From: an uncultured delta proteobacterium | GTDB lineage: Bacteria; Desulfobacterota; RBG-13-43-22 | Assembly (NCBI GenBank): GCA_963802945.1 | Contig: CAWDKY010000072.1 | Coordinates: 1-13,019, forward strand | Direction: 5' to 3' | DNA: 13,019 nt | In this document: positions 1,303 to 13,019 of the stretch, piece after piece | Layout of the letters: the number at the start of each line of letters is the position of its first letter | Numbering within the stretch: position 1 is the stretch's first letter | Program-made: the position numbers and the translations under genes | Notes under the pieces: model-generated | Told to the model about the DNA's origin: nothing | The model's database searches: none | The model's input: the letters and a program-made list of their open reading frames with translations, nothing else

Positions 1303-1730
1303 CGCCGAAGGAGGCCCGACGGCTCCTGCCGAGCGCCCAGCAGCTCGACGGGATGATGCACCGCGCCCGGACCTGGCTCGACTGGGGCGTACCCACCCTG
1401 TCCCTCCGATTCTATCGGCAGGCCACGGAGCTGAAGCCGGGTTCCTGCCCGCCCGGGTCAGAATCGCCCGGTCCCTGCTGGGACTCGGGCTGATCGATGA
1501 CGCCGACCGAGCGTTCAATGAGGTCCTCGCGGTGCGGGAGGAAATCGAGGCCCGGCTCGGAAAGGGAGCGGTCCTCGGGGCGCGCGCCCGACCGAAGGAG
1601 GAGGTCGCGGCCTACCGGAAGCTGCTCGCGGAGCAGGCTCGCGGACTGAGGTGCATGACCATCTCCTCGCCGCGCTCATCGAACTCGGCGACTGGGCGAG
1701 AGCGAAGACCGAGGTGGAAGAGGTGTTGTC
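1303..1730 (+). pseudogene. Internal fragment of a high-GC helical-repeat (TPR-like) protein, frameshifted
   Basis: Stitched reading: KEARRLLPSAQQLDGMMHRARTWLDWGVPTLSLRFYRQATELKPG / FLPARVRIARSLLGLGLIDDADRAFNEVLAVREE...AYRKLLAEQARGL / VHDHLLAALIELGDWARAKTEVEEVLS. It has a TPR-like A/G/L pattern and strongly G/C-ending codons, with shifts at ~1442 and ~1648. No start or stop is present. Confidence 0.55.
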
Positions 1731-1881
1731 GTACTTCGATGTACGCCTCATGCCTGGAATTTTTTCGTGTAAAGGACAACGCTCAGTCCCACCCCTTCGG
1801 GGCGGGTTCCCGGTTTTGGGCGCCTTGAATCTATACCTTTTTGAGCAACCTGTAAAAAATATTTTTTCAACATCCTGTTAA
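1730..1881 (-). mobile_element. Truncated MITE/REP-like non-autonomous element
   Basis: Two degenerate direct repeats, TTTTTGAGCAACCTGT (1838-1853) and TTTTTCAACATCCTGT (1863-1878), match at 13/16 and resemble IS terminal sequences of the AGGCTGTTGAAAAA type. An internal hairpin CCCACCCC-TTC-GGGGCGGG lies at 1788-1806. The resemblance to deltaproteobacterial intergenic repeats is from recall only. Confidence 0.5.
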
Positions 1882-2335
1882 TGATAATGGCTCCCCGCAC
1901 CGTGATGGGGGAATCTTCCAGGCAAGGAAAATTTTTGCTTTGGTAGTTCGCCCATTAACGCCCCGCAGTCACGCCTTTGGAGTAACAGGGCAGGACGTTT
2001 ATTTAGATTGGCATAGGCCATCTATTTAGACAGTGTTTAATAAGGTTGTCAATCTCTAAAAAGTTTTGTTTTGGCACGTTTTTTATGGGGGTCTTGAACC
2101 TTGTACCGTACCGGATAACCATTAAGATTTCCCCTGAGGGTTGATTTGAGAAGTTCTTCCTGAAATGTTGATTTTAAATTTTGGCTCTTTTTACTATAAT
2201 ACAACAGTAATCAACAAAAATGACTTGCAATTTATTGACTTTTTAGTTAGTAAAGAATAATAAATCATAAATAATTTAAACAAGTTTCCTTTTTAGCAAC
2301 CTTTTACCAAGGTCGTGTCAAAGGAGGCAAATAAA

Positions 2336-2899
2336 GTGCTACACAATTTTTGGAGCAGTTCTATATTTGGGTTTATCGTGTTAAATGTAGTGGGTTTTAT
2401 TTTAGGTTATTTTGCTGGCTTATCTAAGAGTATGAGAAATAATTCTTTCAAATTGCCTAAAATCGTTCATAAAGCCTATGTGATTATCTTATTTGTTCTG
2501 CCCATATGTATTTTGCCATTTCTTCCCCAACCTAGATTTGATTTTCACCTCTGGACATTAATAATCGGAATTGCATTAACAGTTATCGGTATAACTATTG
2601 AAATTTTTGCTTTTTGTAAGATTGGTATCATCCCCGGTGGTAAAGCAGGAAATAAAGTTATAAATGCAGGCATTTATAGTTTGGTAAGACATCCTATATA
2701 TTCTGGTACCATTTTATGGTCTTTAGGAATAGTTTTAATTTTAAGGGCTAAATACGCTTTAATATACGTACCAATTTTTATTATCCTTTCTATGTTTTTG
2801 ACATTAGCTGAGGAGAACGGATTGATAGAAGATTTTGGGGGAAACTATAAAGAATATAAGAAAAAGACTAAATGGAGACTTTTCCCCTATTTATTTTGA
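2336..2899 (+). CDS. Isoprenylcysteine carboxyl methyltransferase (ICMT/Ste14/PEMT) family membrane protein
   Basis: Motifs GIYSLVRHPIYSG and EE..L...FG..YKEY.KK..RLFP, with hydrophobic helices. RBS AAGGAGG (2321-2327) favours the GTG at 2336 over 2315. Markedly AT-rich. Confidence 0.9.
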   Translation: MLHNFWSSSIFGFIVLNVVGFILGYFAGLSKSMRNNSFKLPKIVHKAYVIILFVLPICILPFLPQPRFDFHLWTLIIGIALTVIGITIEIFAFCKIGIIPGGKAGNKVINAGIYSLVRHPIYSGTILWSLGIVLILRAKYALIYVPIFIILSMFLTLAEENGLIEDFGGNYKEYKKKTKWRLFPYLF

Positions 2900-2921
2900 A
2901 AATATAGAAGTTCGGGACTTC

Positions 2922-2948
2922 ATATAACAGCGGGCTGGCGGGCTCGCT
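2922..2948 (+). other. Possible left half of an attC-like site
   Basis: ATATAAC (inverse-core-like) lies 22 nt after the stop of an AT-rich gene and is followed by a GC-rich arm, AGCGGGCTGGCGGGCTCGC. No complementary right arm or GTT core was found. Confidence 0.4.
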
Positions 2949-2995
2949 TGAACGGCGAAGGAACTATCAGATTTCACAAACGGGAGAACGTAGAC

Positions 2996-3067
2996 GTGAG
3001 AATGACTGCGATTGAGAAGCATTTCATCAATAGTCCGGAGCATACACTCCGATGGTTCAGGGAATAG
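2996..3067 (+). pseudogene. N-terminal stump, possibly of a class I SAM methyltransferase
   Basis: GGAG RBS then MRMTAIEKHFINSPEHT, which runs into unrelated sequence and stops at 3067. The family call is from recall of similar N-termini. Confidence 0.35.
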
Positions 3068-3153
3068 CCATCGGCTATCCCGACTGGGACGCGCCGGTCA
3101 ATAAACTTCGCGCGGCAAGAGAGCCTCTGGATAAGATGGCGAAAGTTTACTAA
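3052..3153 (+). pseudogene. C-terminal stump of a nitroreductase
   Basis: MVQGIAIGYPDWDAPVNKLRAAREPLDKMAKVY* matches the nitroreductase C-terminal pattern GIAIGYPD...PxN.....RxPL. Confidence 0.7.
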
Positions 3154-3205
3154 CCTAAAACAAATGCAAAACCCAATTGGAATGGGGCGAGATTGATTCA
3201 AAAAT

Positions 3206-3253
3206 TTATTAGGTTGAGCTTTTCTTCACCTACTCATCCTCTCAACCTAGTAA
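3206..3253. repeat. 13-bp inverted repeat with a 22-nt loop
   Basis: TTATTAGGTTGAG (3206-3218) pairs with CTCAACCTAGTAA (3241-3253) at 12/13. It lies just upstream of the OYE gene. Confidence 0.65.
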
Positions 3254-3289
3254 TATTGTTTCTGGTCAGCCCTAAGAAAGGAACCCTTG

Positions 3290-4420
3290 ATGAAATTATT
3301 CGAACCGATTACTATCCGTGGTATGGTCGTGCCGAACCGCATTGTCTATCCGGCCATTCAATTGAATATGGGCATGAATAGCCGGCGGGCTCGAGCTTTT
3401 TACAGCGAGCGCGCCAAAGGGGGCGCCGGTCTTATTCTAACTGCCAATACCGCAATCGACAACTTTGCCTGCGAGGACCTCTGGGGCGGCACCGCAGGCC
3501 TGAACGATTTTATCAAAAGGCTGCGTGTTTTTACCGGTGATGTTCACGCCGCCGGCGGTAAAATCGGGGTGCAGTTATGGCAGGCGAACCGCTTTCCACA
3601 AGGTAAAGGGGTGCAAGCTGCAGGAAAAGAAATGTATCCGGATAGCGGAGAACGCATTGCGCCATCCGCAGTGGAGGATATGCGGGCTTTGACCCTTCCT
3701 GAAATCGATGCCATCATTTACCGTTTTGCCAAAGGCGCCCGTAACGTGCGTGACGCCGGGTTTGACTGCGTGGAAATCCACGGGGCCCATAGGTACTTAC
3801 TGGCACAATTTTCCAACGCGGCGACCAATCAGCGCACTGACCAGTTCGGCAGCGATTTAACCGGCAGAATGAAAATGGGAGTAGACATCGTTAAAGCTAT
3901 GCGGGCTTTTGTGGGTCGGGATTTCCCCATTTTGTTTCGGCTAGGGGCTTTGGAAGAAAACGGCCAAATACACCAGGATAGTTTGATATACGCTCAGGAA
4001 TTAGAAAAAGCCGGAGTGGATTGCCTGGATATTTCTACTGGTGGCTGGGGCCCGAATCCTGTCACTCCCACCAAACATCACCCGATGGGTACCTTTGTCT
4101 ATCTCGCGGAACCGATTAAAAAAGTGGTTAAAATACCGGTGATTGCCGTGGGTAAAATCAACAACCCCGAGGTTGCGGAATCAATTCTGGAAAAAGGGCA
4201 GGCGGATATGGTCGCCATCGGCAGACAATTAATAGCCGACCCTTACTGGCCTTTAAAAGTAAAGGAAAATCGGTTTAAAGATGTGGTGAAGTGCGAGTCT
4301 TGTAATATCAACTGTTCCGCACCGGCCTTCGAGCGTAAATTAGCTCCGGATGCGCCTATCTGTAAAAACAACCCAATCGTGGGAAAAGAATGGGAATTAA
4401 AAGCTTCAAGTAGTTTGTAA
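3290..4420 (+). CDS. NADH:flavin oxidoreductase, Old Yellow Enzyme family (FMN TIM barrel) with a C-terminal Cys cluster
   Basis: Motifs LFEPITIRGM.VPNRIV, FYSERAKGGAGLI, AGFDCVEIHGAHRYLL.QF, NQRTDQFG, IPVIAVGKI and ADMVAIGRQLIADPYWP, plus CESCNINC...C. RBS AAAGGA precedes ATG 3290. Confidence 0.95.
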   Translation: MKLFEPITIRGMVVPNRIVYPAIQLNMGMNSRRARAFYSERAKGGAGLILTANTAIDNFACEDLWGGTAGLNDFIKRLRVFTGDVHAAGGKIGVQLWQANRFPQGKGVQAAGKEMYPDSGERIAPSAVEDMRALTLPEIDAIIYRFAKGARNVRDAGFDCVEIHGAHRYLLAQFSNAATNQRTDQFGSDLTGRMKMGVDIVKAMRAFVGRDFPILFRLGALEENGQIHQDSLIYAQELEKAGVDCLDISTGGWGPNPVTPTKHHPMGTFVYLAEPIKKVVKIPVIAVGKINNPEVAESILEKGQADMVAIGRQLIADPYWPLKVKENRFKDVVKCESCNINCSAPAFERKLAPDAPICKNNPIVGKEWELKASSSL

Positions 4421-4473
4421 TTTTTAATTGAAAAATAGAATGTTAGTAACGAGCAAAAAACTTTTAGGTGAGA

Positions 4474-4499
4474 TTAAGGAGTTCTTCCTAACTCTTTAA
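4474..4499 (+). terminator. Hairpin downstream of the OYE gene, possible terminator
   Basis: TTAAGGAGTT-cttcct-AACTCTTTAA forms 9/10 Watson-Crick pairs plus one G-T. It is AT-rich and has no clear U-tract. Confidence 0.35.
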
Positions 4500-4602
4500 A
4501 CTTTAAGTTAACATAAAATAGAAGAGTTCAAACAGTAATCGAGATAATAGCAATCAAGCCCAACGCCCTTGAACTCCAGATAGACTGCTCGGATTTCCAG
4601 CT

Positions 4603-4685
4603 TCCTTCCCCTTGCCTTCAGCCCTAATTTTCTTCTTGATCCAGTTTTTTTCTTGTTTTATACTCTTTCCATCAAAAGCAAAGTT
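4603..4685 (+). promoter_or_regulatory. Repeat Y copy 1: sigma70-type promoter module
   Basis: TTGATC (4636-4641)-17 bp-TATACT (4659-4664). Ungapped match to 12760-12842 at 64/83. Confidence 0.8.
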
Positions 4686-4711
4686 TTGCAAATTTTTAAA
4701 TGAGGGCCAAC

Positions 4712-5155
4712 ATGTTTTCACTAAAAAGCATTCTGGTACCCACAGATTTTTCCGAATACTCGGACAAGGCACTGCAAAAGGCAATAGACATCGCTAAACA
4801 ATCCAACGCCAAGATTTATCTAATACATGTGGCCAGAAAAGTCTTTCAATACGGGGTCGATTATGGCCTTGATCCACAAATACTTGACCGGTTGGAAAAT
4901 GCAAGTTTCGCTACGGTTAAAAAAATGCTTACGGACCAACTCGCAAAATTTCTGGATTCAAAGTCAATTGAGATCATAAACGATATCCGTATAGGAACCC
5001 CTTACCTGGAAATCTTAAAATATCAACAAGAAAAAAAGATAGATTTAATCGTGATTTCCTCCCACGGCAAAACAGGTTTATTGAGTCATCTTATCGGAAG
5101 CGTGGCCGAAAAAGTTGTAAGAAGTGCCAAATGCTCGGTTCTTCTGGTGAGGTAG
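4712..5155 (+). CDS. Universal stress protein (UspA family)
   Basis: Motifs KSILVPTDFSEYS, G.PY.EIL, IDLIVISSHGKTG and LIGSVAEKVVRSAKCSVLLVR. A GAGG RBS precedes ATG 4712. Confidence 0.95.
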   Translation: MFSLKSILVPTDFSEYSDKALQKAIDIAKQSNAKIYLIHVARKVFQYGVDYGLDPQILDRLENASFATVKKMLTDQLAKFLDSKSIEIINDIRIGTPYLEILKYQQEKKIDLIVISSHGKTGLLSHLIGSVAEKVVRSAKCSVLLVR

Positions 5156-5444
5156 GGTTAATTTATGATGACGGAAGCCTGGACATAAGGCGGGTTGTAC
5201 AGCACATGTTGTTAACCGTTATCGCCATTTCTAATCGTAATCTTTATCTTTTTTTATGAAACTGTTTAGTTGTAGATACCGTCCTCGTCAAGCAAAAATT
5301 GGCTTATAATTTGAATCGAACTTTTTACTGGATTTTGTTCGTCGTCAGCAAAGAGTGAAACTGGGGTAAATTTAGTTTGCACTTTTAAAGTTGGTCTGGG
5401 TGGAAAAGGAGGCTATACTGTTAGCTGTCAGAAAGGAAGAAAGC

Positions 5445-5522
5445 AAAGGTTGAAACGGAAAAGTCATCGTTTGTGCGATTATGCCGAAACTGATTAATAT
5501 TATCTTTGGCATCCTCAAATCC
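5445..5522 (+). mobile_element. Decayed C-terminal remnant of an IS110-family transposase
   Basis: KG*NGKVIVCAIMPKLINIIFGILKS fits the IS110 C-terminal pattern GK..K....A.MRKL..I..G.LKS. It contains an in-frame stop and an R-to-P change. Confidence 0.7.
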
Positions 5523-5883
5523 GATTACAAGATAGCCGAAGCTTCTTTCCTTCCAGACATTTTTTTCGGACCAAAGAATTAAATCGATTAGAATTAATCC
5601 GTTTTAACGAAATCCTTGCTTTTATCTGGAAAGAATGTATTATATTCTGATTATAAAATTGCTCGAAAGAAAAAGAAGGATAGATTAGGCAGAAATAAGT
5701 CCACACCATATCCAAGAAATCCTGCAAAAAGTCCGGCATGATTTTCTTCTTTACCCAAAAGCCTTTCCCGGTCGAAAATCTGGTCCCAAGCTTTTAGGTG
5801 ATCTGATACCAGGGCCTTCCTCCCATCTCAAAAAAATTAGATGCTGGTCCGTCCTAATTTTTCTTCTATAAGAAAAATGGGTT

Positions 5884-7224
5884 ATGTCTGAATCTGATAA
5901 AAATTCATCCTCAATGCCGCCTGTCGGTCTAACCCCTGATACGACCCGAAGAGTTTTTTACGGTTGGTGGATCGTTTTAGGGAGTATGATTACCCTGATT
6001 TTTTCCTGTGGCATTGGTTTTTATAGCCACGGCGCTATCTTGGATCCCCTGCGGGTCCATTATGGATGGTCCAAGGGAATTATCTCTAATGCGCTGACTA
6101 TGTATTTTGCCGCTACCGGGGTCTTGGGTATGGTGGTGGGGCGGGCCGTTGATCGGTTCGGCGCAAAACCTCTTCTCATTCTGGGTTCTATTATTTTTGG
6201 AATTGGATTCTTTCTTTTGAGCCGGATTACCCAACTCTGGCAATTATTTGCGGTCTACTTGCTCCTGTCTGTTGGAACGAGTTGTGCGTCTACGCTAACC
6301 ATTAGCACCCTGATCGCCAACTGGTTTGTCTTCAAGCGGGGATTGGCCATGGGATTGACCATGAGCGGACTAAGCTTAGGAGGGATGGTCATGGTGCCTT
6401 TTACCGTCTATCTGACCTCCCACTGGGGTCTCCGGACGGCCTTACCCACCTTGGGGGGTATCTTTTGCCTAGTGATCATACCGATAGCCTCATTCCTTAT
6501 TAAACAACATCCCGCAGATGTGGGCCAATTTCCCGACGGCCAACGGCTGTCTCCCTTATCCTTAGACATATCGGACAGCCGAATCTCCTTTGCTCCGCAG
6601 ATGCGCGTCTGGACACGGGTTGAAGCGATGCATACAACCGCCTTCTGGGCTATTGTTATAGGTTTTTTGCTGGCCCAGACCGGGCAGCTCGCCTTTCTCG
6701 TTCATCAGGTGTCTTTCTTGAGCCAAACCTTGGGATCGGCCGGGGCGGCGGCCAGGGCGGTAAGTGTTACGACCGCGGCCAGTGTTGTCAGTCGTCTATT
6801 TCTTGGATCGATTGCCGACCGTTTTGATAAGCGGTTCGTGGCCATTTTTTGTTTTTTACTCCAGGGAATAGCCGTTCTTTTTATGGCCCACTTCCACCAG
6901 GTGGTGGTTGTTTATCTCGGGACCTTTGTCTTCGGTCTGACTATGGGTGGAATCGTTATGATGCAGTCTCTTTTGATCGGCGATTGTTTCGGCATGGTTT
7001 CCTTCGGCACGATTATCGGTTTTTCCGGGTTGTTCACCCAAGTAGGGTCTTCTTTCGGCCCGACCATCGCCGGCCTTATTTTTGACGCTACCCAGGATTA
7101 CGGGATCGCTTTCACTATCTTTGGGATTGCCAGTCTATCGGCTATTGTGGCCGTTTTCTTCGCTAGACCTCCGATGCCTCTCCAGGGTGTATCAGTCTAC
7201 ACCGGGACAAGTGAACCCTCTTAG
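5884..7224 (+). CDS. Major facilitator superfamily transporter (OFA/MCT-like)
   Basis: 446 aa with about 12 hydrophobic helices. Motif A appears as GRAVDRFGAK and GSIADRFDKR; also FYGWWIV and NWFVFKRGLAMG. Confidence 0.95.
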   Translation: MSESDKNSSSMPPVGLTPDTTRRVFYGWWIVLGSMITLIFSCGIGFYSHGAILDPLRVHYGWSKGIISNALTMYFAATGVLGMVVGRAVDRFGAKPLLILGSIIFGIGFFLLSRITQLWQLFAVYLLLSVGTSCASTLTISTLIANWFVFKRGLAMGLTMSGLSLGGMVMVPFTVYLTSHWGLRTALPTLGGIFCLVIIPIASFLIKQHPADVGQFPDGQRLSPLSLDISDSRISFAPQMRVWTRVEAMHTTAFWAIVIGFLLAQTGQLAFLVHQVSFLSQTLGSAGAAARAVSVTTAASVVSRLFLGSIADRFDKRFVAIFCFLLQGIAVLFMAHFHQVVVVYLGTFVFGLTMGGIVMMQSLLIGDCFGMVSFGTIIGFSGLFTQVGSSFGPTIAGLIFDATQDYGIAFTIFGIASLSAIVAVFFARPPMPLQGVSVYTGTSEPS

Positions 7225-7399
7225 GGTAAACCTGTGAAGATGAGGCTCTCTTGGTTGTAAATATTATTCGGACGTTATTTCACAACTTGAATTCAAAACT
7301 ATAATTCTTAACAACTCACTAAATGGGACCACGGGAAATGACCGCGCCCCCATGATTTCCGGCCTTAGGCATATCACCATCGGTCGAGAGGTGGCTCTT

Positions 7400-7531
7400 A
7401 TGACTGACATAGACTCTTTTAAACAAGAAGAAATCTGTTTTGTTATCAGTCCCGTTGGTGAACCGACTTCTGATACGAGGACGTGGTCAGACAAGGTGTA
7501 TGCCCCATTCATCTCCGGCCCATTTACCTGA
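7400..7531 (+). pseudogene. N-terminal stump of a nucleoside 2-deoxyribosyltransferase-like protein
   Basis: GAGGT RBS, then MTDIDSFKQEEICFVISPVGEPTSDTRTWSDKVY.... The CFVISPxG...S.TR..SD.V pattern is the typical N-terminus of this group. It stops after 43 aa. Confidence 0.65.
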
Positions 7532-7585
7532 GATTCAATATTCTCAATGGGAAGATTCGGCGAGCGTAACTTTTATTTTATTAAT

Positions 7586-7640
7586 TTCAATATTTCAAAC
7601 GGTTAATTTTCCGGTCTATCTTCTTAAAACATTAGGTGAA
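7586..7640 (+). repeat. Repeat X copy 1
   Basis: The core 7602-7633, GTTAATTTTCCGGTCTATCTTCTTAAAACATT, matches 12613-12644 at 31/32. The flanks TTCAATATTTC and AGGTGAA are also shared. Confidence 0.9.
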
Positions 7641-7832
7641 AGCTTCAAAAAAAGGCGGCTGTTGAACAAGCCCTTAAAGTGGCCTTAGATATTTCTTAAT
7701 TGAAATTATGCCCTGGTGGATGATAAAAGGATGAGAATGATTAGATTCAGTCAAAACCCTCGGCCATGTGGGGGAAAGAAGTTGTGTTAGAACCAGCGGC
7801 CCTTTAACGATGGATTGAAAAGGAGTGCAAAT

Positions 7833-9021
7833 ATGAAGATTATAAGTGTAGACGTCATGGAGCTTAAACCACGGAATAATCCCCGCTGGCGGCCTGTTGT
7901 CTGCCGTATCAATACCGATGAAGGCCTTTCTGGATATGGCGAGGCGGCCATGGCTTACGGCGTAGGCGCATCTGCCGCTTTCGGAATAATCAAAGACCTT
8001 TCTCGCATGATTATCGACAAAGATCCTCTCGATAACGAAGTAATCTGGGACAGGTTATATAAAGCCACCTTCTGGGGGCAGAACGGCGGTCCAGTGATTT
8101 TCTCTGGTATCAGTGCTATCGATATAGCCTTATGGGACATCAAGGGCAAGGCATTCAACGTTCCCGTTTACAAGCTGCTCGGAGGCAAGAGAAGGGATAA
8201 ACTAAGGGCTTATGCCAGCCAACTTCAATTCGGCTGGGGTGACAAGCTCACATCAGTCTGTACCACAGAGGATTATGCCGCCGTTGCCCGGAAGGCGGTA
8301 GCTGAAGGCTACGACGCCATCAAAATCGACTTCTTTACCTTCGATAGGGATGGAAAAAATTTTTTCTTCCGAAGATTCCACCAGATTACTCAAACCCTAT
8401 TATCTCGACTTGATTGAGGAAAGAGTTTCTGCGGTAAGAGAGGCCATTGGCCCGAAGGTCGACATCATTATAGAAGCCCATTCCTTTACCGATGCCCAGG
8501 CGGCCATCCAGATCGGAAAGAGAGCCGAAAAGTATAATATTTTTGCCTATGAAGAACCAACTACTCCGACTCCAAAGATGACCAAGCTGGTAGCCGAAAA
8601 CGTCAAAATCCCGATTGCCAGTGGAGAGAGAATTTACACCCGATGGGGCTACGCCCCTTATTTTGAAAACGGCTCGCTGGCTCTCATCCAGCCTGATTTT
8701 GGTACTTGTGGCGGGATCACCGAAGGAAAGAAGATCTGCGACATGGCTTATGCTTACGATGTAAGTGTTCAGGCGCATGTCTGTGCCAGCCCGCTTTCAA
8801 CAGCCGCAGCCCTGCATTTGGAAGCGGTCATCCATAACTTTTGTATCCATGAGCATCATGTTATCAATCTATCTTCCTTTAATAAAGAACTCTGCCTCTA
8901 TGATTATCAACCGGTTGACGGCTATATCAGAGTTCCGGAGAATCCCGGCCTGGGCAATGAATTATCCCAATACGCTTTGGAAACAGCCAATAAGTTAACG
9001 GTATCGAGGCCGAAAAAATAA
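7833..9021 (+). CDS. Mandelate racemase/muconate lactonizing enzyme family protein (enolase superfamily), split by one frameshift
   Basis: N-part: RINTDEGLSGYGEA, SAIDIALWDIKGK, PVYKLLGG, GYDAIKID. C-part: IIIEAH, YEEP, IPIASGE, QPD..TCGGITE, HEHH, PGLG. The frames join across the A6T6 run at 8354-8365. RBS AAGGAG precedes ATG 7833. It is either a sequencing indel or a pseudogene. Confidence 0.9.
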
Positions 9022-9027
9022 AAGGCG

Positions 9028-9053
9028 AGTATCTCCGGCAGAGCCGGGGGCTT
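9028..9053 (-). repeat. GC hairpin resembling an IS200/IS605-family end or REP; may also act as a terminator
   Basis: CTCCGGC-AGA-GCCGGGG at 9033-9049. The minus strand reads AAGCCCCCGGCTCTGCCGGAGATAC, like IS200-type subterminal hairpins. No tnpA is in the window. Confidence 0.5.
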
Positions 9054-9283
9054 GAAGATGGATAGCGAGAGCATAGAAGCATTAAAACGAGCCCTGATCG
9101 GGGTAAAGAATCAGAGGGAGGAGGCATTTATTTTGCTAAATGCGGTCCCGGAAGAATATTAGAAAGATGTGGTAGAATATTTCCTGATTTTAACTGGGCT
9201 CAAAAAAATTGATAATCGGCATTGAATCAAAAAACCGAATTAAGGATCCCTCAATTCCTATTTCTCAGTGATTGGAGAGTCAT

Positions 9284-9589
9284 ATGGCAAGAGGTTACTG
9301 GATCGGTAGGGTCGATATTACTGACCCAGAGAAATACAAAGAATATATTGCGGCCAATGCTGAACCATTTAAGAAGTTTGGCGCTCGCTTCTTGGTGCGG
9401 GTCGGTAGTTTTGAAAACCCAGAGGGTTCGTGCCGCTCTCGCAACATTGTGATTGAGTTTCCATCCTACCAAGCAGCACTCAATTGTTATAATTCGCCCG
9501 AATACCAAAAGGCAATTAAACTTAGGCAACCGGTGTCAAGTGGAGATATCGTTATTATTGAAGGCTATGATGGTCCACAGCCTGGGTAA
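9284..9589 (+). CDS. DUF1330 family protein
   Basis: MARGYWIGRVDITDPEKYKEY...FGARFLVR...EG..RSRNIVIEFPSYQAALNCYNSPEYQKA...DIVIIEGYDG. A GGAG RBS precedes ATG 9284. Confidence 0.92.
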   Translation: MARGYWIGRVDITDPEKYKEYIAANAEPFKKFGARFLVRVGSFENPEGSCRSRNIVIEFPSYQAALNCYNSPEYQKAIKLRQPVSSGDIVIIEGYDGPQPG

Positions 9590-9643
9590 TCGTTGGACTT
9601 TTGTGAATTTTCCAATTCCAAATTATTCAAGAGGAAGGACAAG

Positions 9644-10012
9644 ATGGGACCGATAGATTGGTTGGACCAGATCGAAGTGATCATTTCCAATTGTGACGAG
9701 CATGGGATCACCGCATTCATAAACCAGAGGGGTAGCGAGAATTTCGCCGGGTCTGGTGGCTACCAGCTCATTGGAAAGAGCATGGTGGAGTGCCACCCCG
9801 AAGGAGCTGTGCGGGAGAAGTTTGTAAATCTGTTGAAGAGCCAAAAGTTCAATTGCTATACCATCGAGAGGAAGGGCAAGAAGATGCTGGTTTACCAGAC
9901 ACCTTTATTCAAGGACGGGGATTTCGTTGGGTATAATGAGATGATCCTTCCAATCCCTAAAATCATGCCGCATTTTGTGAGGGGGTCCGAAAATACTAAA
10001 CATACGGTTTGA
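9644..10012 (+). CDS. Small stand-alone PAS-domain protein
   Basis: I..CDEHGI..FIN...LIGKSMVECHP...NCYTIERKGKKMLVYQTP...MPHFVRG. RBS GAGGAAGG precedes ATG 9644. Confidence 0.85.
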   Translation: MGPIDWLDQIEVIISNCDEHGITAFINQRGSENFAGSGGYQLIGKSMVECHPEGAVREKFVNLLKSQKFNCYTIERKGKKMLVYQTPLFKDGDFVGYNEMILPIPKIMPHFVRGSENTKHTV

Positions 10013-10153
10013 TGGGAATCAAAACTACTGTGGGTAAAAGACGGTATGGCAAGTGAAACAGGGAGTAGACTGGCTGAGAAAAGGCACAAAAGAATGCTAA
10101 GGTTTCTGGAAGATTACAAAGAGGAGATGAATCTCAATGATGAAGGATCTTGA
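10013..10153 (+). pseudogene. C-terminal stump of an HD-superfamily phosphohydrolase (YedJ-like)
   Basis: WESKLLWVKDGMASETGSRLAEKRHKRMLRFLEDYKEEMNLNDEGS* fits the pattern KLL.LKD.M.TETG..LA..RH..M..FL. Confidence 0.7.
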
Positions 10154-10328
10154 TGTGTGCTGTACCCCAAGGTTATGGATGTTAATATGGTCTTCTTGCC
10201 ATTTTCTGCTCTAAAGAAAAGAAATATCATTACCATATACTATAAACGAAGAATTCATCAGAGGATTTAAACATAACAAGATTCCCGTACTAAACATTGA
10301 AAAATCTCGTCAGTAGCGGTTTATAGAA

Positions 10329-10385
10329 GGCTAACAAATCAATCCAGCGGACGTCTTGTAGCCGCCATTGATGGCCACGTTATGC
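10329..10385 (+). other. Degenerate integron attC-like site (57 bp)
   Basis: R'' GGCTAAC, spacer AAATC, L'' AATCCAGC, then GGAC...GCCGCC, L'-like ATTGATG (4/7 of the expected GCTGATT), spacer GCCAC and R' GTTATGC. It starts 12 nt after the TAG (10314-10316) of an AT-rich reading-frame remnant. Confidence 0.65.
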
Positions 10386-10664
10386 TCACTTTCAACGGTA
10401 ATCAATAAAAGCTGTTTTTGTCAAAAAAGCCCAGCATTGCAAACTTCGTATTTTCTGTTAATAAGCAGTAAATATATGGTAATAAATTATGTCTCTTGAT
10501 ATATTAACTACTTATATAAAAATGAAAATTAATTTATACTATTTTTAGAAATAAATATCCGGGAAAGACGAACTTGGTATATTAATTGTTGGACTGGAAC
10601 CGCAACCCTCTTGTTTTTTCATCTTCCGGCAACCATCTCAAAAAACAATCGTAAGGAGAGAAAA

Positions 10665-11159
10665 ATGAAAAACACAGCAATGCTTTTATCGCTTCTTCTA
10701 CTTGTTTTAGCAGGCGCTTTTGTGGGCCAGGCAATAGCCGACGAAGCAAACAAAAAGTCGCAAACTATATCTCGGGCCGGCTCTCAGCCTTCCGACAAAG
10801 GGCCTGCGGAATATTTTACCGGCAATGTCCGCATTGACCCTCTGTTCCCTGCAAATGATTCGGCGCACTTTTCCGGCGCGTATGTCACCTTCGAGCCGGG
10901 GGCCAGATCTGCTTGGCACATTCACCCGACAGGGCAACATCTGATCGTTACCGCTGGCGTTGGCCGGACACAGGAATGGGGAGGCCCGATAGAGGAAATC
11001 AAAGCTGGCGACGTGATCTGGTGCCCGCCAGGGGTAAAGCATTGGCACGGAGCCTCACCCACCACCTCAATGACGCATATAGCCATCACGGGAACAATCA
11101 ACGGCAAAAACGTTGAATGGATGGAAAAGGTCACCGACGAGCAATACAACGGTAAATAA
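10665..11159 (+). CDS. Cupin-domain protein with a signal peptide ((R)-mandelonitrile lyase-like/QdoI-like)
   Basis: Motifs [49 protein letters not shown] and [12 protein letters not shown]. Hydrophobic N-terminus ending AIA. RBS AAGGAG. Confidence 0.93.
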
Positions 11160-11169
11160 GGAGTTAACC

Positions 11170-11895
11170 ATGAATAAAAAAAATACAACGTTCGTGGCAC
11201 TCATATTTACCTCGATGTTTACCTTTGCAACCATCTCGGAGGCGCAGATTATGAAAAACAAAGGCTTGAATGCCAAACAGCAAAGTATCGTCACCATCGC
11301 GGCCTTTACCGCCAACGGTGATCTGCGGGAACTGAAAACGGCCCTGAATGAAGGGCTTGATGTCGGTTTGACCATCAATGAAATCAAGGAAGTCCTCGTG
11401 CAGATGTACGCCTATGCGGGATTTCCCCGAAGCCTGAACGGTATCAATGCCTTCATAGGCGTCCTGGAAGAACGGGAACAGAAAGGCATCAAGGACGAGC
11501 TTGGCAAAGAACCAAGGCCCATGCCTGCCAACAAAAGCAGCATCGAATTCGGAACGGAAATTCAGACTAGACTGATAGGAGCGCCGGCCACTGGGAAGTA
11601 TATTACTTTCTCCCCCGCCATTGATAAGTTTTTAAAAGGACACCTTTTTGGAGACATCTTCGGACGCGACAACCTGGATTTCCAGAGCAGAGAGATAGCA
11701 ACTATTTCGGCTCTGGCCAATATTGAGGGAGTCAATCCACAGCTGCAGTCTCATTTTAACATCGGGTTTAATACAGGTCTGACCGAGGCGCAGATGAGGA
11801 GCCTGATATCCGTTCTCGAAGTCAAAGTTGGCAAGAAAGCAGCCGATAATGCGAACGAAATTCTGAGCAAGGTTTTGAGCAGCAGGGCCGGCTAA
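11170..11895 (+). CDS. Carboxymuconolactone decarboxylase/AhpD-like family protein (two CMD repeats)
   Basis: Motifs [54 protein letters not shown] and QLQSH. RBS AAGGAG precedes ATG 11170. The N-terminus looks like a signal peptide. Confidence 0.92.
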
Positions 11896-11946
11896 GGATG
11901 TAGACAAACTGATACGTCTAATTAATATACGCGAAACGAGGCAGAT

Positions 11947-12429
11947 ATGGAAAAGATTCTGGTGGGTTATTTTTCCCACAGTGGCAACACTCGTGAAATT
12001 GCCAATAAAATTCACAAAAACGTGGGCGGCGATATTTTTGAAATTAAGGCCGTAAAGCCGTATCCTGATGATTACGATGCAGTTGTAAAACAAGCAAAGC
12101 AGGAATTGGATTCCGGCTACAAACCAGCATTGAAAACAAAAATTGAGAACATCAAGTCATATGATTTAGTTTTTATAGGCTACCCCATTTGGTGGGGCAC
12201 GTTTCCCGCTCCGGTCAAAACCTTTTTGTCGGAATATGGTTTCTCGGGAAAGACCATTGTACCATTTTGCACGCACGAGGGAAGCGGTCTGGGACGAAGC
12301 GTTTCGGATATCTCAAAACTTTGCCCAAAATCGACCTTGCTAGATAGTATTGCCATTTGGGGAAGGGATGTGAAAAGCGCACAAAATGAGGTTTCTGAGT
12401 GGCTGCAGAAAATTAAAATCACGAAATAA
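11947..12429 (+). CDS. Flavodoxin (Flavodoxin_4-like)
   Basis: Motifs YFSHSGNTREIA, YDLVFIGYPIWWG and GKTIVPFCTHEGSGLG. GAGG RBS. Confidence 0.95.
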   Translation: MEKILVGYFSHSGNTREIANKIHKNVGGDIFEIKAVKPYPDDYDAVVKQAKQELDSGYKPALKTKIENIKSYDLVFIGYPIWWGTFPAPVKTFLSEYGFSGKTIVPFCTHEGSGLGRSVSDISKLCPKSTLLDSIAIWGRDVKSAQNEVSEWLQKIKITK

Positions 12430-12480
12430 GAAATCTTAATGACAAGTAAAATACGATTAAAAATATTGAAGATGACGTAA

Positions 12481-12525
12481 ATAGGTAAGAAAATTTTAGC
12501 CCTGTCCGCCAGCCCAAAGGAAGGG
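12481..12525 (+). pseudogene. N-terminal stump of an NADPH-dependent FMN reductase/iron-sulfur flavoprotein family gene
   Basis: IGKKILALSASPKEG resembles MxKKILxLSxSPRKGGNS, with ATA in place of the start codon. Such genes often follow cupin/CMD/flavodoxin clusters. Confidence 0.5.
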
Positions 12526-12590
12526 AGGGCTATGGCCAAAAACGGAGCGATGATACTTCAATTTCAAGGCCGGAAAAGTCCAGCCAATTC

Positions 12591-12654
12591 TTCAATATTT
12601 CCATCCGTAATCGTTAATTTTCTGGTCTATCTTCTTAAAACATTTGTAGGTGAA
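12591..12654 (+). repeat. Repeat X copy 2
   Basis: The core 12613-12644 matches 7602-7633 at 31/32. The flanks TTCAATATTTC and AGGTGAA are shared, with small indels. Confidence 0.9.
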
Positions 12655-12759
12655 GTCCACGAGCAAGAAGGATCTGTCAGTCCTTTTCCCTTTATCAACT
12701 TCTATTTAAAAATCCCTGACCTGCAAAGTCCCAAGTCCCTTATTCTGCGAAAAATTCCC

Positions 12760-12842
12760 TCCTTCCGCTTGCCTTTGGCCCCATTTATCTTCTTGACCGG
12801 GTCTTTTTCGTCTCTTATACTCCTACTGTTAAAAGCCAAGTT
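12760..12842 (+). promoter_or_regulatory. Repeat Y copy 2: sigma70-type promoter module
   Basis: TTGACC (12793-12798)-17 bp-TATACT (12816-12821). Matches 4603-4685 at 64/83. Confidence 0.8.
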
Positions 12843-12870
12843 CTTATCAAAAAATACAGTCCTAAAGCAA

Positions 12871-12899
12871 TTGACACCAGTGAGTAGAGGGTTTACTGT
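12871..12899 (+). promoter_or_regulatory. Possible second sigma70 promoter
   Basis: TTGACA-17 bp-TACTGT, upstream of the gene at 12969. Confidence 0.45.
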
Positions 12900-12968
12900 T
12901 CCGTATCCGACAAAGGCTCTGGACAGAAAGGAATGCCTCTTGGGCATCACCTCAGGAGATTGAAGACT

Positions 12969-13019
12969 ATGCCAAAAAACCGTCTTATGACCTTCGCAGT
13001 GATCCTGCTGACTATCGCT
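12969..13019 (+). CDS. 5' end of a probable exported or membrane protein (runs off the window)
   Basis: AGGAG RBS, then MPKNRLMTFAVILLTIA, which has a basic n-region and a hydrophobic h-region. Confidence 0.6.
   Translation, partial: MPKNRLMTFAVILLTIA

Follow-up and report, generated by a model that had tools for sequence, protein, structure and literature searches.

Right ends of a decayed IS91-family element in a co-oriented gene patchwork of an uncultured Thermodesulfobacteriota genome

Introduction

How do genes that have nothing in common, together with the stumps of others, come to lie on one strand and to be separated by long spacers full of repeats? The question is posed by a stretch of 13,019 bp, here called the window, which is the whole of contig C72 in a metagenome-assembled genome (MAG) of an uncultured Thermodesulfobacteriota. 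A first-pass annotation had read positions 2336-13019 as a directional array. DNA pieces would have been added in one orientation with ragged ends and given reusable promoter modules, either in an eroded integron or by an undescribed capture system whose enzyme lies elsewhere. We think it rather probable that the window is a piece of a fast-rearranging accessory zone, in an organism of peat and soil, and not an array built by a dedicated capture machine. The genes are of ordinary kinds and stand alone or in short operons. Most are native to the genus and each has an upstream region of its own, and the spacers are assembled from repeat families that occur throughout the genome. Central to this explanation is one such family, D, which sequence comparison identifies as the promoter-bearing right end of an insertion sequence of the IS91 family.

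The host genome (G000) comprises 4.37 Mb in 72 contigs and is rated 100% complete and 6.7% contaminated. DNA comparison drew on 13 same-genus genomes and on 30 relatives overall. Protein search with the MFS transporter of the window retrieved relatives recorded as MAGs of an uncultured 'delta proteobacterium' or of Thermodesulfobacteriota, in many cases from long-read assemblies; the genomes named individually are G004, G005, G008, G009, G010 and G013, and C with a number denotes a contig. Sequencing runs with words in common with the window are peat and soil metagenomes. Genes were called with our own crude codon-usage open reading frame (ORF) caller, which gave 4007 genes at 79% coding density and may lengthen same-strand runs. 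Repeat families were defined by BLAST of the window against its own genome, followed by two rounds of profile search for copy numbers.

Family D and its source element

G000 has a single intact IS91-family transposase gene, on C25, and about 45 further loci with transposase fragments. The intact gene encodes 444 residues and matches Zn_Tnp_IS91 (E 5e-20) and Y2_Tnp (E 7.7e-22). One intact gene was found among 13 relatives, in G010, with 89% protein identity to the G000 copy. In blastn the alignment of the two intact copies takes in the gene together with 131 nt of upstream and 80 nt of downstream sequence. The D module lies at equal offset (2966-3041) in both, and the flanks, read by eye, diverge just after D.

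The association extends to decayed copies. D is placed 134-142 nt after the transposase stop, on the same strand, in eight of the nine distinct copies in relatives that keep the 3' end. A transposase relic lies within 450 nt upstream and on the same strand for 22 of the 91 D copies of G000 and downstream for none of the 91; as a control, 8 of 1000 random gene starts have a relic within the same upstream range. Because the link between D and the transposase holds in the intact copies, in the relatives and in the relic test, we identify D as the last 80-130 bp, the right end, of an IS91-family (HUH/Y2, rolling-circle) insertion sequence. By analogy this end would be the replication origin of the element. 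An HUH nuclease was among the enzymes that the first-pass annotation had proposed to seek outside the window, and that expectation was correct, with the intact transposase on C25 and relics of it in the window spacers. The system is of a described kind (IS91/ISCR), which removes the need for an undescribed one.

The D consensus carries TTGACC or TTGATC, a 17-nt gap and TATACT, pointing outward and followed by a conserved leader, which is a near-consensus sigma-70 arrangement, and D is therefore a putative promoter. In 78 of 90 cases the gene that follows D has the same orientation, the median distance being 93 nt. Sequence clustering divides the first genes downstream of 66 D copies into 57 groups; the first genes on C30 include radical-SAM, nitroreductase, MarC and other families. 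Many D matches have 80-90% identity over 60-110 nt, to be compared with the at least 80% over at least 50 nt before non-homologous genes by which mobile promoters are recognized. The proposal of reusable promoter modules is thus borne out, since D and the 12-copy family B stand upstream of unrelated, co-oriented genes, except that such modules are no speciality of this locus; the families are genome-wide.

Contiguous homology of D copies to the element sets in at varied points between positions 1201 and 1640 of the element, and in most cases it spans no more than the final 130 nt. A discrete left limit for solo D copies was considered and rejected, as conserved sequence extends upstream in many copies and the limits spread. 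Elements of the IS91 family typically have a target or terminating tetranucleotide of the GAAC/CAAG type at their borders and leave no target duplication; the borders here were read by eye.

The surroundings of the intact element merit description. At C25:38824-43155 the element and a gene for a 159-residue secreted protein behind D are flanked by 207-nt direct repeats that are 98% alike. The repeats (L118 496-702 and 3018-3224) correspond to the 5' part of a flavoprotein gene. They resemble the duplicated 3'-conserved segments (3'-CS) that Toleman et al. in 2006 are said to have described around ISCR1. The nested 5' truncations of D copies and this flanked unit would be compatible with rolling-circle transposition, one-ended events included.

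Element traces in the window

Sensitive blastx of the whole window against the transposase gave three matches above noise, all on the plus strand, and the E values that follow refer to that comparison. A relic of approximately residues 346-368 occupies 3154-3222, between a nitroreductase stump and the old yellow enzyme (OYE) gene; the aligned part (3154-3204, residues 346-362) is 76% identical over 17 residues with E 0.004, and its continuation to 3222 was read by eye. The second relic (4556-4606, residues 409-425, 82% over 17 residues, E 8.8e-4) is fused directly to a D module, its alignment to the C25 copy being read by eye. This D module, at 4607-4684 on the plus strand, has an outward TTGATC-17-TATACT at 4636-4664 and ends 16 nt before the universal stress protein (USP) gene. 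A possible degenerate relic of residues 206-264 before the MFS gene (5623-5808) is a weak match, 31% over 65 residues with a stop and E 0.17. At 12764-12841, also on the plus strand, a second D end with TTGACC-17-TATACT at 12793-12821 precedes the start of a lipoprotein gene at 12969. A promoter scan finds both D copies and a B copy. In total, element traces are seen in three or four of about eight spacers.

Gene order among relatives

The first-pass annotation named a gene order common to relatives as grounds for refutation, and the relatives do not share the order. The window genes are dispersed in the 13 same-genus genomes, on different contigs or far apart, and are scattered even in a 20-contig assembly. 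Most are native to the genus, with 82-97% DNA identity in same-genus genomes, which is contrary to the idea that they are foreign pieces. MFS orthologues at this level of identity differ in their upstream regions, homology starting from 5592, from 5729 or from 6-8 nt before the start codon. One species has an E element abutting its MFS gene. For a unit of D plus a nitroreductase gene, homology in G005, G008 and G004 starts at the 5' border of D.

Other parts of the genome provide a scale. The D-rich stretch C30:272001-291999, 20 kb of a 305-kb contig, is scattered gene by gene in five same-genus genomes; it was picked for its D copies and hence is not a neutral control. The core stretch C15:100001-120000 is collinear over 20 kb in G005 and in blocks of at least 9 kb in the others; C17:230001-250000 is poorly conserved.

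The end of C30 (C30:262000-305045) holds a co-oriented run of about 35 unrelated genes with seven D ends in one orientation. At the far end are C-terminal stumps of a DnaJ gene and, on the minus strand, of an aldehyde-ferredoxin-oxidoreductase (AOR) gene, a transposase relic and a broken PNPOx gene. The architecture is the same as that of the window, on a 305-kb contig.

A history of the following kind probably produced this state. Copies of an IS91-type element would have inserted repeatedly, their transposase genes then decaying, and the outward-facing ends may have been retained wherever a gene is driven by them. Later, the numerous homologous copies would have served as sites of deletion and recombination. 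The outcome would be solo promoter-bearing ends before genes, neighbours cut into stumps, and promoter-plus-gene units reshuffled between species. The element would be a likely cause of the rearrangement at this locus. What is supported of the proposal that pieces were added with ragged ends is the ragged ends, at three stumps; directional accretion remains a hypothesis.

We also considered a single insertion that covers the whole of 2154-12757, between module G (described below) and the unit of D and lipoprotein gene, since 2154 is joined to 12757 in metagenome contigs and in G005. Module G is itself present in five copies, and the joint may be just a further combination of modules.

Co-orientation and the integron question

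ORF and Pfam calls agree with the first-pass annotation that all 11 recognizable genes in 2336-13019 are on the plus strand. Is this unusual? Genome-wide, 1364 of 4007 genes (34%, with the crude caller) belong to same-strand runs of at least 11, and 699 of 3289 windows of 10.7 kb with at least seven genes (21%) are single-stranded. Of gene pairs at least 200 nt apart, 66% are co-oriented. For seven gaps of this length in succession the chance of co-orientation throughout is about 0.05, which is unremarkable as many windows were scanned. The cumulative GC skew climbs along the window, consistent with genes on the leading strand. The co-orientation is not beyond the genome-wide expectation. It had been offered as a hallmark of integron cassette arrays, with a level no greater than that of the genome at large named as grounds for refutation, and no greater level is what was found.

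Integron cassettes are mostly promoterless, tightly packed and bounded by attC sites, and each attC site has an inverse core RYYYAAC, an imperfect palindrome and a core GTTRRRY within 50-150 nt. The first-pass annotation reported attC-like relics in the spacers. Our own pattern search for inverse-core/core (R''/R') pairs 50-150 nt apart with complementary arms gave no candidates in 2336-13019, although it is cruder than IntegronFinder and degenerate sites could escape it. Four pairs at 1086-1216 lie inside the coding sequence of a glycosyltransferase gene; no more than 14 of 25 arm positions match in any of them, and shuffled sequence gave 3.0 pairs on average. No integron integrase was found in the genome, the best TIGR02249 score being 79.6 bits against a cut-off of 265, with the reservation that a piece could be missing from an assembly of 72 contigs. 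The weak matches are Xer-like only, and the same weak signal is given by 14 of 14 control genomes. The spacers measure 250-730 nt and contain promoter-like modules, so the genes are not promoterless.

Other repeat families of the spacers

Copy numbers in G000 are 71 for family A, 12 for B, 26 for C, 68 for E, 5 for G and 2 for F, in addition to the 91 of D. The spacer repeats are present throughout the genus as well as in the other three genera of its family, and are hardly seen in 12 other families of the phylum. Repeats X and Y of the first-pass annotation are real and correspond to B and E, yet with 12 and 68 copies genome-wide they are not specific to the locus. An Rfam search of the window at E up to 1 gave no matches, and the repeats therefore represent no described RNA family. 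The next gene is co-oriented for 31 of 71 copies of A, 11 of 12 of B, 22 of 26 of C, 32 of 67 of E and 5 of 5 of G. Families A and E have no orientation toward genes; B, C, D and G point at a co-oriented gene.

All copies in the window are on the plus strand. The family A element at 1730-1885 is MITE-like (miniature inverted-repeat transposable element), one of 71 copies, 41 on the plus and 30 on the minus strand. Members measure about 150-220 nt, have inverted termini in many copies and an internal GC-rich hairpin followed by T-rich sequence, and are conserved across the family to which the genome belongs; the window copy lacks the left part, its assignment as MITE-like coming from the terminal inverted repeats of other copies. 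Upstream of the PEMT-like gene are module G (2090-2166), module B (repeat X, 2154-2214, with a promoter-like site at 2173-2200 in the promoter scan) and module C (2203-2335), a leader with ribosome-binding site and start codon. A B-like module at 4474-4547 is the second copy of repeat X, seen as direct repeats D3 and D8, spaced 2328 nt from 2146-2219. Family E (repeat Y) is present as a fragment at 7586-7640, recognized by repeat and own-genome comparison, and as an element at 12511-12654. Module F (10391-10590), of which relatives also have copies, lies before the cupin operon.

A transposase relic lies directly upstream, on the same strand, of 9 of the 68 E copies, and in relatives E abuts truncated transposase genes. 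One possibility for E is that it forms the end of a second, diverged lineage of IS91 type; another is that its copies insert into the element described above. With the same test a relic was seen for 3 of 26 C copies and for none of 71 A copies. Derivation of B, C, E, F and G from the IS91-type element was examined, and no significant DNA match to either intact copy was found, the best non-D match being G with E 0.0015 on the opposite strand.

The motif ACRGTAATC, often preceded by TTCAA, recurs at module borders, namely between B and C, between the B-like module and the transposase relic, at the start of F and inside E. Inspection of the window placed it at 2203-2219, 4531-4547, 10394-10410, 12604-12612 and 7598-7606. 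It is not enriched overall in the genome, with 84 occurrences found against about 73 expected; 45 of the 84 are intergenic, in a few conserved contexts. The suggestion that it derives from the transposase coding region was abandoned, as none of B, C, E, F and G gave a significant match to the element.

Genes and gene stumps

The genes are all on the plus strand. The contig begins with a GT39/PMT_2-like membrane glycosyltransferase gene (1-1290; PMT_2 match in frame 1 over 1-312, E 1.6e-5), interrupted by at least two frameshifts, with changes of frame near 312 and near 1060, and without DNA matches in its own genome or the 30 relatives. A frameshifted TPR-like fragment follows at 1299-1729, with a weak TPR_16 match and 65% GC, foreign to the composition of the genome. 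The gene for a PEMT/ICMT-like membrane methyltransferase (2315-2899; PEMT, E 2.8e-8, and ICMT) has 30% GC and a protein-identical copy on C30. The OYE-type FMN oxidoreductase gene at 3287-4420 is intact (Oxidored_FMN, E 6.4e-56). The USP gene (4700-5155; Usp, E 2.2e-32) has paralogues on C29, C43, C15 and C53, some with the same D upstream, and the MFS transporter gene occupies 5884-7224 (MFS_1, E 5.5e-42). An enolase-superfamily gene (7833-9021; MR_MLE_N and MR_MLE_C on two overlapping ORFs) is split at 8360, where an A6T6 run contains a +1 frameshift; two relatives are one T shorter there.

The DUF1330 gene (9284-9589, E 2.6e-34) and its partner orf139 (9644-10012), whose 139-residue product belongs to no known family, are conserved together in the genus, with 87-90% DNA identity in two same-genus genomes (G009 and G013). 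Homology of orf139 in relatives stops at 9988, and the last eight codons are replaced in the window. Genes for a cupin (10665-11159), a CMD (AhpD-like) protein (11170-11895) and a flavodoxin (11947-12429), all assigned with Pfam, are probably one operon (10665-12429); DNA matches are patchy in relatives and were found in only one same-family and one same-phylum genome. The contig closes with the start of a lipoprotein gene at 12969, and the 97% identical copy on C29 leads into a lipoprotein gene of 405 residues.

Six plus-strand stumps had been listed, and three of them are gene ends by homology. That at 3052 is the 3' end of a nitroreductase gene (3034-3150), 55% identical to the C-terminus of a 221-residue nitroreductase on C29, for which homology in relatives starts sharply at 3051. 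The stump at 7400-7531 represents the first 38 residues of a 443-residue protein, at 74% identity, and the surrounding 7298-7600 recurs as a unit with other flanks in peat metagenome contigs. That at 10013-10150 is the 3' end of an HD-domain gene (37.5% identity over 40 residues). Pfam at E up to 1 recognized none of the short stumps. The other three were not confirmed as gene ends. No homologue of the candidate at 2996 was found, and the sequence at 12481 was rejected as a stump because it belongs to repeat family E. Position 5445 is a breakpoint, G005 and a peat metagenome contig having about 260 extra bases between 5445 and 5446-5449, in which no coding homology was found. On C53, sequences like 5268-5336 and 5445-5521 adjoin in inverted relative order.

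Base composition does differ along the window, as had been claimed, from 30% to 65% GC. The extremes are the PEMT-like gene, the 65%-GC fragment, which is outside 2336-13019, and AT-rich spacers; the other genes are close to the genome mean of approximately 47.5% (47-48% in large contigs).

The contig as a molecule

Is the contig one real molecule? Positions 1730-4542 are 97% identical to the contig end C30:299422-302223, and 12538-13019 are 97% identical to the end of C29. The segment 1769-3090 is nearly identical to C30, whereas the OYE copies differ, mostly at third codon positions; the two versions have the look of separate alleles or strains. Homopolymer runs carry single-base indels at 8360 in the window and in C30:300982-302108, where four single-base deletions affect the OYE copy. 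Errors of the long-read consensus may account for them, in place of pseudogene formation. Positions 1-1729 have no matches in the genome itself or in the 30 relatives, and deep contigs from two peat runs (depths 337 and 99) match from 1299 and differ before it. The best sequencing run has 12% of the sampled window words.

Independent support is available for several parts. C30 holds 1730-4542, and G005 holds 3051-4540 and 4622-7300 on separate contigs. Metagenome contigs span 5074-5446, 5453-6261 and 9824-10047, the last covered by a soil contig with one mismatch. One soil run contains 99-100% identical pieces of OYE (in the contig's own allele), of the MFS gene, of the enolase-type gene and of DUF1330/orf139, so these four co-occur in one population. 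On contig C103 of G005, genes like those of the C30 end adjoin a C29-like D-plus-lipoprotein unit, which places the two anchors of the contig in one neighbourhood. The contig is probably correctly assembled.

Competing explanations

Four explanations need to be set against one another. An eroded integron, or a CALIN (attC sites clustered without an integrase), shares with the window the presence of unrelated co-oriented genes, and little else. The integrase score is far below cut-off and is matched in every control genome, inverse-core/core pairs are wanting in 2336-13019, the genes have their own promoters within long spacers, and the repeats between genes are spread genome-wide in both orientations; we judge this origin highly improbable. 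That the patchwork was never one molecule, and arose as strains were mixed or contigs mis-joined at high-copy repeats during assembly or binning, is improbable to a lesser degree. It would suit a short contig that is present whole in a bin with 6.7% contamination, the copies of the C30 and C29 ends, borders at 1730, 4542 and 12538 that are at or inside dispersed repeats, the unmatched first 1729 nt with a 65%-GC piece that has a very deep metagenome match from 1299, the frameshift in the homopolymer at 8360, and the ceiling of 12% of sampled words in any public run. It has to contend with a similar patchwork of D ends, stumps and transposase relic on the 305-kb C30, with junctions that recur in C30, G005 and independent metagenome contigs, with the four window genes in a single soil run and with the C30-end-like genes beside a C29-like lipoprotein gene in G005.

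The closest competitor, in our opinion rather unlikely as an account of the window, is active accretion by an ISCR-like element. One-ended rolling-circle transposition would take ragged flanking DNA, and the circles would re-enter by homologous recombination, unit by unit in one orientation. In the window all relics and D ends face the gene direction, and the stumps are ends of genes that break off sharply. In G005, G008 and G004 homology to the D-plus-nitroreductase unit sets in at the 5' border of D, and the C25 element with its 159-residue gene between 207-nt repeats looks as a re-entered captured circle would. IS801 can take 290-1431 nt of upstream DNA with it and gives rise to right-end miniatures (PMC3189936). 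It is a plausible hypothesis that the D element captures genes. However, no event was caught in the act, and the family is mostly dead, a single intact transposase being left in G000 and another among 13 relatives. D copies have their 5' limits spread over 1201-1640 of the element in place of a few discrete sites, a pattern that decay would explain no less than abortive transposition, most spacers have no relic, and co-orientation is ordinary for this genome. Bardaji et al. attribute most genomic IS801 fragments to reorganisation (PMC3189936).

The accessory-zone explanation that we prefer has its own difficulties, which weigh against it. A D end is present in only two of about eight spacers, and only two relics are significant. 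One of the nine copies in relatives that keep the transposase 3' end has no D downstream, and in G000 D follows only 5 of the 10 fragments in which the transposase C-terminus is preserved. Families B, C, E, F and G have no significant DNA homology to either intact IS91-type copy. The promoter function of D is predicted from the consensus match only, and the gene and co-orientation figures depend on the crude ORF caller. Junctions near 4542-4620, 7299, 7600-7815, 9022-9250, 10150-10633 and 12430-12757 are without independent support, and metagenome contigs of relatives break at 7298-7300 and 10633. These two breaks and the 2154-to-12757 joint are real recombination points in the wider population. 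Finally, the 97% duplication of two contig ends, the homopolymer frameshifts and the foreign 65%-GC piece make it possible that part of the patchwork is an effect of assembly or strain mixing.

Relation to known systems

ISCR1 offers the nearest comparison. The study of that element (PMC6218425) reports a 232-bp oriIS region behind the transposase gene with two outward promoters established by reporter assays, 93 groups of first downstream genes at intergenic distances of 0-1211 bp, and transposition so far undemonstrated. By that description the plan is alike, an HUH transposase gene, a conserved end with outward sigma-70-type promoters (POUT), then varied unrelated genes (PMC6218425); here D lies 134-142 nt after the stop and the 66 downstream genes form 57 clusters at a median of 93 nt. 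The settings differ. ISCR1 is associated with class 1 integrons, clinical gamma-proteobacteria and resistance genes, and the D element is chromosomal in uncultured Thermodesulfobacteriota of peat or soil, beside housekeeping-type redox, stress and transport genes. D copies are nearly all solo ends, 91 against one intact gene, and the promoter is predicted only.

For IS801, the passages of Bardaji et al. on genomic fragments describe right-end miniatures of 229-679 nt, 290-1431 nt of upstream DNA carried along, and a majority of fragments judged to be products of reorganisation and not of one-ended transposition (PMC3189936). Retention of the right (origin) end with variable left cut points, and mobilised flanking DNA, are points of likeness. 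The IS801 miniatures described there have discrete lengths and a left-end-like tetranucleotide border, whereas the 5' limits of D spread and its copies are far more numerous. Putative mobile promoters (Matus-Garcia, Nijveen and van Passel 2012; PMC3575422) were defined by at least 80% identity over at least 50 nt before non-homologous genes, within a genome and across genera; their families are mostly pairs of unknown origin, unlike D, which is one family of 91 members with an identified source element. A literature search of limited coverage found no published IS91-type element of such a kind in Desulfobacterota.

Biological significance

The locus can be explained without an integron or an unknown machine, and a candidate new capture system is removed. 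There is also a practical caution, in that such repeats break short-read assemblies and may mis-join contigs. A more ambitious proposal, which we regard as doubtful, is that the IS91/ISCR-type element serves one Thermodesulfobacteriota family as a chromosomal system for gene shuffling and promoter delivery. It would have about 90 ends per genome, before about 2% of genes, and would generate co-oriented arrays of ragged-ended promoter-plus-gene units by one-ended transposition and homologous re-entry, the window being one such array. If capture is real, this would be an environmental counterpart of the ISCR elements on resistance plasmids, acting on ordinary redox, stress and transport genes.

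As matters stand, a very large mobile-promoter family has a traceable source. One decayed IS91-type element appears to give a ready-made, strong predicted promoter to dozens of unrelated genes across a family of soil bacteria, and the zones rich in its D ends are reshuffled gene by gene between species.

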